Shown in pieces: positions 14,834 to 17,800 of a DNA stretch of 64,000 bases. The notes beneath the pieces are model-generated. The model was not told where the DNA came from. It saw only the letters and a program-made list of their open reading frames with translations, and ran no database searches. The position numbers were made by a program, and so were the translations under genes. Location: positions 4,032,001 to 4,096,000 of the forward strand of contig CM000152.2 of NCBI GenBank assembly GCA_000004695.1. Direction: 5' to 3'. The stretch is from Dictyostelium discoideum. Its lineage: Eukaryota. Each line of letters starts with the position of its first letter. The first letter of the stretch is position 1.

Positions 14834-17800
14834 TTATTTATTTATTATTAGATGAACTAAATATTTTTGATTTAAAACTCTTTTATTTTTTGGTGGAAAA
14901 TCAATAGAATCAATTAGTAAATTTGACAATTGAAAATTTGAAGAATCTATTGATTTTAAAACCATACCACATAAAAAATTCAATTGAAATAATGATGATT
15001 GATTTGTTTTTGTTCTCACTTTTAATAAAGATTGACTATTTTTATTAGATGATAGAATGTTTTTGAAAATTTGGGTGAATCCTTTTCCAGAAGCTACACA
15101 AAGACAATTATAAAGATGATTGATTGTATTATCATTTAAATTTTCAATAAAATAATTAATAAGTAATTCAAGATAATAACTTGAACATATATTATATAAA
15201 TAAGATTCTTTAGTAAAATTTGGGAAATATGTTGAACTAAAAATTTCAGGTATTTTATCAAAAAGATAAAAAATATCCTCAAACCTATCTAAATAATAAA
15301 GACAAATAAATAACATTCTGGGTGAAATTATAAAATCAAATGATTTTGTTTCACCAATAATAAATTGTCCAACTTCTTCACTATTTGTTGTTGATATTGT
15401 TGAGGTGAGTGGAATAAAATCATCTCTACCATAATATAAATGTGGAATATTGAAATTACCTTTAACTTGATATAACTTTGGTTCAATTGATTCTTTTGAA
15501 ATATTATTAAAAATTAATTTGATAAGGTTTGGAATTTTATTTGGTGATGGAGCACCATATATAATATCAGAAAATCTAAATGGTTGTTTAAATATTTCAT
15601 TTGGTAAAAAGAAATTGATCACAACTTCATTACCATTTTCTAAAGACCAACCAAATATATTTAACAAAGTGGTATTACAATAATAACCAGAATCAAAAAA
15701 AAATGAATATAATAAAGGTTTTGAAATTGCTCTTTTTAATTGATCCAATAATATATTTACATTATATTTTTTTTCATTATTTTTATTTCCATTTGTGAAC
15801 CAATTACTATATTTTACAAAATATAATTGTAACTTTTTACCAATACTTTCCATTATTTTTTCAATATGATCAATAATATTAACATGATTATTATTCCAAT
15901 TTTGATTTTGATCATCAAATAAAGTAGTTTCATTTCTATAATTTTCAAAAAAAAAGTCGACAATTTCATTTTTATTAATATATTGAAAATTGATTGATAT
16001 AATATAAGAGATACTTGGAAATTGTGTTTTTGAGTTTTGAGCAAGTTGTAACTTTTTTATTGTTTTAATTAGATGGTCAATTAATTCTGTATCGTTAGTT
16101 GAAAATACAACTCTACAAAATGAATTAAAACTTGTAAAATTAAAATTAGATCCAATATTTTGAAATGAGACTCCATTTTCAATATCTAAAATTTTTGATA
16201 CTAATTCTAATCTTTGATTTCTTTCAAGTTGTTGATCAATTAAAATACTTTTAAAAAATATTAAACAATCATCATATTTCTTAATAAAAAATCCACAAAA
16301 TATTTCATATAATTGACTAACATTCATTTTTTTTTTAAAATATAAATAATAATGAAATGGTCTCATTAAATTTCTATCATGTTTTCCTTCTTCAATAATT
16401 TTTAAAAATAAATAAATTGATTTATAATATTTTTTAATAATATCTTTTAAATCACTGCAATTATTATTGTTTGTTATTAATATTGGAGTGGTGGTAGTGG
16501 TTTTTGTTTGATTCAATAGATTTTTAATTGTCGAATTTAATTGATCATCAGTAAAATGAGAGAATTGAATTTCATTTAATTCTAATATTAATTGATCTAA
16601 TTTTTCAATATAATCCAATATTTGTAGTTGTCGTCCCTCTCGTTGTTGTTGTTGTTGTTGTTGTTGTTGTTGTTGTTGTTGTTGTTGTTGTTGTTGTTGT
16701 TGTTGTTGTTGTTGTTGCTGTTGTTGTTGTTGTTGTTGTTGTTGTTGTTGTTGTTGTTGTTGTTGTTGTTGTTGTTGTTGTTGTTGTTGTTGTTGTTGTT
16801 GTTGTTGTTGTTGTTGTTCTTGTTCTTGTTGTTCTTGTTGTTGTTGTTGTTGTTGTTGTTGTTGTTGTTGTTCTTGTTGTTGTTCTTCTTGTTGTTGTTG
16901 TTGTTGTTGTTCTTGTTCTTGTTGTTGTTCTTGTTGTTGTTGTTCTTGTTGTTGTTGTTGTTCTTGTTGTTGTTGTTGTTGTTGTTGTTGTTGTTGTTGT
17001 TGTTGTTGTTGTTGTTCTTGTTCTTGTTGTTGTTGTTTTTGTTCTTGTTGTTTTTGTTGTTCTTGTTGTTGTTGTTGTTGTTGTTGTTGTTGTTGTTGTT
17101 GTTGTTGTTGTTGTTGTTGATGTATTTCTCGTATTTCTTTAAATTTTGTAGGATCGACTAATAATTTATATGATTTTATAAGTCTTTTAAATTTATAATC
17201 AAATGATAGACTTTCTGATAAATCAATATTAGAAAATCGTTGTTTAATATGTGATGTTGGAATAGCATTAATTGATTTTAAATAATTGTAAATTTTTAAA
17301 TTATTATATGAAAATACATTAAAGAATGATGGATTAATATGCATTTCTATACTTTTTTTTAAAACATCTGAATTTATTTTAAAAAATTTAATAAATTGAT
17401 CTAATGCTACTAAATTTTCATTTAAAATCATTCTTTGAATCCATAGATCAATATTTTCATCAAATTGGAAAATCAACGATTTTGTTGATTGCATTGTTGT
17501 TGTTGTTGATGATGATGAAGAGAATGTTGAAAATAATGTAGTATAAAATGAAATTGTTTCATTATCTTTTTTTTTTAATGTTTTAATAATATTTACAATA
17601 TCATTTACACTTCTGATTATTTGATGATTAATATTTCCTTTAATATTATCTTTTATTATTTCTAATGAATTACTATAACTTTTTAAAAAGTTTTCATTTA
17701 TACCAATTAAATCATGATAACCAAATTGTTTACTTTTAAAATTTGAAAATATATTTTTAAAAATGATCATATTTCTAAAAGCTTTCCAAAAATAAATTTC

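Follow-up and report, generated by a model that had tools for sequence, protein, structure and literature searches.

Human polyQ disease alleles carry about 36-40 glutamines. Coding polyQ in Dictyostelium discoideum is abundant, long and variable, as is already well documented. Coding repeats of this organism were reported to be as variable as matched non-coding repeats, which the authors of that study attributed to mutation and drift (PMC3460934). Moreover, D. discoideum was reported to resist polyQ aggregation during normal growth (PMC9234386), and length-dependent insolubility of polyQ in Dictyostelium was found only under nutrient stress or at high cell density (PMC13093961). Surveys of Dictyostelium repeats used thresholds of 20-26 repeats, whereas the polyQ tract considered here is far longer, with 159 codons in total and 58 in a pure run. 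In literature searches on the longest Dictyostelium polyQ, no usable figure was found by which this tract could be ranked.

Given this background, the discovery value of one more long polyQ tract is small. The locus is of modest value as a worked example: comparison of three paralogues with two sets of orthologues reveals that the change was from short to long, on which branch it took place and from which seed motif ~150 codons were gained. It also shows that a CAA repeat devoid of hairpin potential expanded in a gene whose reading frame is still maintained. The window, that is, the whole stretch of DNA that was analyzed, comprises 64,000 nucleotides of contig CM000152.2 (GCA_000004695.1, positions 4,032,001 to 4,096,000), and all coordinates below refer to it unless another contig is named. 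Its G+C content is ~20%, and homopolymer and triplet tracts occur throughout, which is a Dictyostelium signature.

Results

Identification of copy 1 and its paralogues

A tblastn search with copy 2 as the query revealed exactly three tandem copies of the gene family in the window, all of them on the minus strand. The copies and the elements of them that are referred to below are as follows.

14834..18127, minus strand: copy 1, intact 1097-codon ORF, UniProt Q54UG3 (ORF and matching published counts)
17897..18028, minus strand: SAP domain of copy 1, aa 34-77 (Pfam PF02037 and PF18953)
19226..22087, minus strand: copy 2, intact, 953 codons (ORF and tblastn)
21065..21097, minus strand: short linker of copy 2, QQEEEEQKQQK, aa 331-341 (translation)
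22498..25419, minus strand: copy 3, same frame throughout, interrupted by two in-frame TAA stops (codons 88 and 518)
24358..24402, minus strand: short linker of copy 3, 15 residues, aa 340-354 (translation)

The Pfam scores for aa 34-77 of copy 1 were 28.4 bits for PF02037 (cut-off 23.9) and 31.1 bits for PF18953 (cut-off 26.3). A protein of strain AX4 annotated as "SAP DNA-binding domain-containing protein / UPF0746 protein" (P0005) matched with E = 3e-235 and a coverage of 99%. By sequence similarity, the copies in the window belong to the Dictyostelium UPF0746 / SAP DNA-binding domain-containing protein family. Copy 3 is likely a pseudogene, judging from its two stop codons.

Neither copy 1 nor copy 2 had an exact match in the protein collection; copy 1 was identified via the literature and by anchoring on the neighbouring genes. 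For positions 329-521 of Q54UG3, PMC7773278 reports 193 amino acids, 146 glutamines and 58 consecutive glutamines, and the translation of copy 1 in the window gave exactly the same three counts (193, 146 and 58). Since the counts match exactly, copy 1 can be identified as Q54UG3, the "UPF0746 protein DDB_G0281095" of Dictyostelium discoideum AX4. The coiled-coil label that Swiss-Prot places on positions 329-521 was judged to be a probable mis-annotation in the same paper (PMC7773278). A literature search for 'UPF0746' found nothing.

Composition and architecture of the tract

The in-frame (CAA)n tract of copy 1 occupies 477 nt, or 159 codons (aa 337-495), at 16643..17119 on the minus strand; the plus strand of the window reads (TTG)n at this site, and the coding sense is (CAA)n. 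The preliminary description had placed a tract of about 490 nt and 165 codons here; the tract is real and lies where it was reported, and the size given was slightly too high. The codons are CAA (141), GAA (15), AAA (2) and CAG (1), and they encode 142 Q, 15 E and 2 K (89% Q). All 17 amino acid-changing interruptions are thus E or K, with no P, H, L or R among them. From the N-terminal side, a pure run of 19 glutamines is followed by an interrupted core of 82 codons and then by a pure run of 58 glutamines.

16643..17119, minus strand: whole Q-rich tract of copy 1, 159 codons (same 477 nt at 20407..20883 of contig L003, see below)
17063..17119, minus strand: N-terminal pure Q19 block (codon reading)
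16817..17062, minus strand: interrupted core, 82 codons, with all 15 GAA and both AAA codons (codon reading)
16643..16816, minus strand: C-terminal pure Q58 block, 32 CAA + 1 CAG + 25 CAA, the longest pure Q run
17120..17125, minus strand: upstream anchor ATA CAT (Ile-His), common to the three copies in the window and to four of the five L001/L002 relatives examined
16637..16642, minus strand: downstream anchor CGA GAG (Arg-Glu), common to the copy-1 orthologues of L001 and L002, which bounds the homologous interval

Tandem Repeats Finder assigned the tract a score of 831 with 93-94% matches. A (CAA)10 probe with at most one mismatch had 110 matches in the window, compared with none in 100 dinucleotide-preserving shuffles. 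The tract consists of a 3-nt unit repeated head to tail at high purity, lies in frame in a maintained ORF and varies in length between lineages, and it is thus a coding trinucleotide microsatellite of the Dictyostelium type. A poly-Leu ORF of 177 aa on the plus strand (16628..17161) was rejected as a gene because it is the mirror image of the repeat.

A run of 58 glutamines would be improbable if the 17 interruptions were randomly placed (P ~0.005). This block contains one substitution in 174 nt, or ~0.006 per site, for which the upper bound is near 0.03. The Q58 block is probably the most recently grown part of the tract and may be younger than the copy-1 branch as a whole, with the caveat that interruptions can be purged by slippage itself. 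A search for duplication of a larger Q/E block inside the tract gave five coincident interruptions at the best offset against a null mean of 5.8, which was not significant.

With regard to a prion-like reading of the tract, the glutamine content of 89% is suggestive, but the 17 charged interruptions speak against such a reading.

The tract in a second assembly

GCA_054883475.1 is an independently deposited, chromosome-scale assembly, from which a 6.43-Mb contig (L003) was recovered by anchoring on the neighbouring pseudouridine synthase gene. Over 15789..37586 of the window, the two sequences were 99.69% identical, with 14 differences in 21.8 kb. These were mostly differences in the length of A/T homopolymers, with a few substitutions, and none of them fell inside the tract, where 477 of 477 nt were identical, every interruption included. 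The full 1097-aa product of copy 1 was encoded identically in this assembly, and the first stop codon of copy 3 (codon 88) was found to read CAA there. Over ~33 kb, no triplet repeat differed between the two assemblies, and homopolymers were always shorter in GCA_054883475.1. This assembly appears to represent the same laboratory lineage as the window DNA, sequenced by another technology, and it is thus uninformative with respect to natural polymorphism. Two metagenome scans with the tract-flank junctions as probes gave no matches and hence no natural length variants.

Polarity and timing of the expansion

Two further assemblies labelled D. discoideum, GCA_054859355.1 (L001) and GCA_054859385.1 (L002), were compared with the window. 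Both have the same gene order, namely, the pseudouridine synthase gene, three family copies and a G-alpha gene. Each copy in the window aligned best with its positional counterpart, the collinear DNA alignment extended through the flanks, and a neighbour-joining tree of the window copies and their L001 and L002 counterparts resolved three clean orthology groups. For the pseudouridine synthase gene, the pairwise dS between the window and L002 was 0.082 (dN/dS = 0.11). Therefore, L001 and L002 are not near-identical strains of the window DNA but represent separate lineages.

Between the ATA-CAT and CGA-GAG anchors, copy 1 has 159 codons in the window, 12 codons in L001 (QQQQEQQQQEQQ) and 6 codons in L002 (QQQEQQ). 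The other family members examined, 14 of 14, likewise had a short linker of Q, E and K, with a length of about 5-25 residues; they were copy 2, copy 3, P0001-P0010 and both copies of the more distant L004. Considering that the linker is short both in the copy-1 orthologues and in all of these members, it can be concluded that the expansion is confined to copy 1 of the AX4 lineage. It is younger than the triplication and younger than the split between the AX4 and L001/L002 lineages, and a single such event on the copy-1 branch that leads to AX4 would explain all of the linker lengths. The claim of the preliminary description that a triplet expansion followed the duplication is borne out by the orthology groups and by the contrast of 159, 12 and 6 codons. 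The alignment of copies 1 to 3 around the tract, which it had proposed as a check, confirmed the short linkers of copies 2 and 3 and the motifs quoted for them. The comparison of 6, 12 and 159 codons across paralogues and orthologues was not found in PMC7773278, the one paper located that names DDB_G0281095.

Rate of the expansion

On the branch leading to copy 1 of the window, 89 substitutions could be polarised, 68 of them non-synonymous and 21 synonymous (dS ~0.042, dN/dS 0.71). The base-substitution rate of D. discoideum is 2.47e-11 per site per generation, and small deletions were 4.5 times as frequent as insertions in mutation-accumulation lines (PMC7466956). At this rate, the copy-1 branch corresponds to up to ~1.7e9 cell divisions, over which a net gain of ~150 repeats needs only ~1e-7 repeats per generation. 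In the one comparison available, that of the window with the near-identical GCA_054883475.1, the tract length was unchanged. With up to ~1.7e9 divisions available, the tract need not have expanded fast, and the earlier statement that it shows how fast coding microsatellites expand in this genome is not supported.

Probable slippage without hairpins and the likely origin of the interruptions

For either strand of the tract, the predicted DNA fold had a minimum free energy (MFE) of 0 kcal/mol, compared with -30.7 for (CAG)50. Therefore, hairpin-stabilised slippage of the human CAG/CTG kind does not apply here.

GAA accounts for 15 of the 18 non-CAA codons of the tract. Conversion of CAA to GAA requires a C>G change, which was found in 0 of the 89 substitutions on the copy-1 branch, and GAA is already present in the orthologous seed motif. 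The glutamate interruptions are thus best read as amplified ancestral GAA, and the GAA codons of the tract are probably copies of this codon rather than independent mutations.

Constraint on copy 1 and predicted structure

Pairwise dN/dS values within the family ranged from 0.30 to 0.84. Copy 1 evolved fastest, with pairwise values of 0.67-0.84 and the longest branch. When neutral evolution was simulated with the number and spectrum of substitutions observed on this branch, a stop codon arose in 98% of the simulations (P ~0.02 for an open ORF). Therefore, the ORF of copy 1 is being maintained.

The two AlphaFold models were of low confidence (pLDDT 63.5 and 58.7, pTM ~0.39) and were used solely for local secondary-structure context. 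In copy 2, the site was predicted to be a low-confidence loop (331-345) between helices 320-330 and 346-363. In copy 1, the predicted flanking helices run on through the tract (326-419 and 428-521, pLDDT 40-78). When the copy-2 model was compared with the PDB by Foldseek, no hit was significant (best E = 0.013, TM <=0.17), the only resemblance being a vague one to alpha-solenoids.

Discussion

Alternative explanations

Long pure triplet repeats are difficult to assemble, and the preliminary description had itself cautioned that the true length might be similar to that of copy 2, in which case the 477 nt would have resulted from mis-assembled repeat reads. However, the tract was not shortened in GCA_054883475.1, which carries the same 477 nt and yet departs from the window sequence at 14 positions elsewhere, and whose shorter homopolymers suggest a different sequencing technology. 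Moreover, the 18 irregular interruptions serve as internal landmarks in the tract, and Q54UG3 in Swiss-Prot has the same counts. The identity of all 477 nt in the second assembly therefore answers this caveat, and an artefact, which is exceedingly improbable, can be regarded as largely refuted, assuming that GCA_054883475.1 was assembled without a reference. Just as little credence can be given to a long ancestral tract that contracted in every other copy. The 4.5-fold deletion bias among small indels in the mutation-accumulation data would favour such contractions, but they would have had to occur independently, each time to 5-25 residues, in the copy-2 clade, in the copy-3 clade, in the copy-1 orthologues of L001 and L002, in both copies of L004 and in the distant paralogues P0004-P0010, whereas a single expansion explains the same data. 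Furthermore, when GAA is set aside as amplified, point changes are found in 3 of the 159 codons, or ~0.006 per site compared with a branch dS of ~0.042, which points to a young tract.

The other alternatives concern the significance of the tract for the protein. If the expansion was adaptive, the tract would be a selected module, either a helical or coiled-coil spacer of tuned length that separates the N-terminal region, with its SAP domain, from the all-alpha C-terminal region or a stress-responsive switch of solubility or condensation. The openness of the ORF through 89 substitutions, the restriction of the amino acid-changing interruptions to E and K, the continuation of the flanking helices through the tract in the AlphaFold model and the coiled-coil label in Swiss-Prot are all consistent with such a role; in addition, polyQ was proposed to extend adjacent coiled coils (PMC3378862), and the solubility of Dictyostelium polyQ falls with length under nutrient stress (PMC13093961). 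However, the tract is absent from all other family members examined, including both copy-1 orthologues, the glutamate bias is more simply explained by amplification of the seed GAA, and no other copy of the array has a dN/dS as high as that of copy 1. The helices were predicted with a pLDDT of 40-78, the coiled-coil annotation was doubted in PMC7773278, and coding repeats vary as much as non-coding ones in D. discoideum (PMC3460934). Adaptive expansion is thus unlikely, and neofunctionalisation, by which a selected Q/E helical spacer or solubility switch would have given the AX4-lineage copy 1 a new property compared with its two neighbours, is somewhat more so. If it did occur, one candidate property would be that the protein condenses or is sequestered on starvation, a condition in which polyQ proteins of Dictyostelium turn insoluble in a length-dependent manner. 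The high evolutionary rate of copy 1 (dN/dS of 0.67-0.84 pairwise and 0.71 on the branch, which is the longest) and the stop codons already present in neighbouring copy 3 might instead suggest an incipient pseudogene, in which the expansion would be a symptom of lost constraint. Such decay is very improbable, since an ORF of 1097 codons has remained intact and without frameshifts in a genome of ~78% A+T and neutral simulations nearly always (98%) introduced a stop.

Proposed course of the expansion

The best explanation overall, and in our opinion a quite probable one, is that a Q/E-rich linker expanded by slippage, in a nearly neutral manner, in a paralogue that is under weak constraint and yet maintained. 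Ancestrally, two helices were joined at this site by a short linker rich in Q, E and K, with (CAA)3-4 GAA (CAA)2 as its form. After the triplication and the split from L001 and L002, this seed grew by about 150 codons in the AX4 lineage. We infer that growth proceeded via replication slippage or unequal exchange, which amplified both CAA and the pre-existing GAA, and that its last phase probably took place in the C-terminal block of 58 pure codons. Hairpin intermediates like those of human CAG/CTG repeats played no part, since both strands are unable to fold. The expansion was presumably tolerated because the site lies in a flexible or helical inter-domain linker, because the paralogue is weakly constrained even though its ORF is still open, and because the organism is known to cope with long polyQ. 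The tract would then be a nearly neutral by-product of a repeat-prone genome and not a device.

Several observations run against near-neutrality. The interruptions are all charged (E and K), a pattern that selection for solubility could also yield. A net gain of 150 codons runs counter to the measured deletion bias among small indels. The ORF is maintained, so the protein, including the tract, may matter.

Comparison with described repeat systems

Such repeats number in the thousands in this genome; the tract is extreme among them but ordinary in kind, and it has already been catalogued in Swiss-Prot and in print. The UniProt entry Q54UG3 describes the same protein as copy 1, with the same region, the same 146 glutamines and the same run of 58, under the database label of a coiled coil.

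Human polyQ loci, such as the CAG repeats of HTT, the ATXN genes and AR, share with the tract a pure polyQ run and a change in the length of a triplet repeat. The preliminary description considered a tract of this length to be in the range that is aggregation-prone in most organisms. This holds insofar as the Q58 run exceeds the human disease range; for the host itself it has to be qualified, since D. discoideum resists aggregation in normal growth (PMC9234386) and polyQ becomes insoluble only under stress or at high density (PMC13093961). The repeats also differ in composition: the human loci consist of CAG, whereas the tract consists of CAA, with one CAG among its 142 glutamine codons and 17 E/K interruptions. 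The CAG and CTG strands of the human loci form hairpins that are thought to drive their instability, whereas the strands of the tract have an MFE of 0. Finally, the tract is the same in the two assemblies and in this one comparison gave no sign of being a dynamic mutation, and its host is reported to be resistant to aggregation.

A second likeness is to polyQ that extends helices beside coiled coils (Schaefer et al. 2012, PMC3378862; PMC4049302), since the predicted flanking helices of copy 1 would continue through the repeat. In contrast to those cases, the prediction for copy 1 is of low confidence, and the same site is modelled as a loop in copy 2.

Among the closest known systems are the coding CAA/AAT microsatellites of Dictyostelium (Scala et al. 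2012, PMC3460934; PMC9234386). As in these, the tract is built of CAA and read in the glutamine frame within an ORF, it varies in length from lineage to lineage and is tolerated by its host, and mutation and drift are its simplest explanation. The locus is convenient for studying length polymorphism and the effect of a 58-Q run in an aggregation-resistant organism. Compared with the loci in the Dictyostelium repeat surveys, the tract of copy 1 has the advantage that orthologues and paralogues reveal both its ancestral state and the branch on which it arose.

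Evolution of the tandem family

For the tandem UPF0746/SAP-domain family (window 14834..25419; loci L001 in GCA_054859355.1, L002 in GCA_054859385.1 and L004 in a more distant lineage), pairwise dN/dS was found to be 0.30-0.84 versus 0.11 for the adjacent pseudouridine synthase. Rapid evolution is a property of the whole tandem family, and either weakened constraint or diversifying selection may underlie it. The number of family copies varied by lineage: three were present in the window, in L001 and in L002, and one near-full copy and one 5'-truncated copy were present in L004.

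Four codons (LNKD) that were present directly past the Q-rich tract in copy-1 orthologues were missing from copy 1. It was also observed that poly-Thr tracts inside the family (window about 15900..16600 and the regions homologous to it in copies 2 and 3) varied in length among copies and lineages; for example, 7 residues followed 'LLNQ' in copy 1 versus 16 in copy 2.

Stop codons in copy 3

The following features were found in copy 3.

22498..25419, minus strand: copy 3, with two in-frame TAA stops (codons 88 and 518)
25156..25158, minus strand: stop 1 (codon 88), TAA in the window, CAA in GCA_054883475.1
23866..23868, minus strand: stop 2 (codon 518), TAA in the window and in GCA_054883475.1 alike

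The codon-88 difference lay at window position 25158 (T in the window versus C in the near-identical assembly GCA_054883475.1). Because the same codon reads CAA in that assembly, this stop is either a polymorphism or a sequencing error. In the GCA_054883475.1 annotation, copies 3 and 2 were merged by the gene caller into a single 1854-aa model.

Segment adjacent to the family array

A segment of ~3.3 kb with a 328-331-aa gene separated the pseudouridine synthase from the family array in each of the three other lineages (L001, L002 and L004).

L002, 3253..6554: ~3.3 kb segment
L001, about 110..3350: ~3.3 kb segment
L004, about 4300..6600: segment
Window, 25584..25632: corresponding site

This segment was missing from the window and from GCA_054883475.1; it was either deleted in the AX4 lineage or inserted elsewhere. 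An additional 123-131-aa gene was found between the pseudouridine synthase and the array in L001 and L002.

Length differences and other repeats

Window 4789..37586 was compared with L003 (the locus in GCA_054883475.1) and L005. Every length difference between the window and GCA_054883475.1 was in an A/T homopolymer, which was shorter each time in GCA_054883475.1; this looks like an effect of sequencing technology and not biological variation. Triplet repeats, including (AAT)88 at 9181..9447, showed no length differences from L003 and L005 over the compared region.

Two further repeats were found in the window.

4614..4751, intergenic or intronic: 68-bp unit, two tandem copies with 88% identity
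616..697, minus strand: second (CAA)n tract, inside ORF 257..1987

The latter tract is read in the ACA frame and encodes 26 consecutive threonines of a C2H2 zinc-finger protein. It shares the DNA motif of the copy-1 tract, but neither its reading frame nor its homopolymer.
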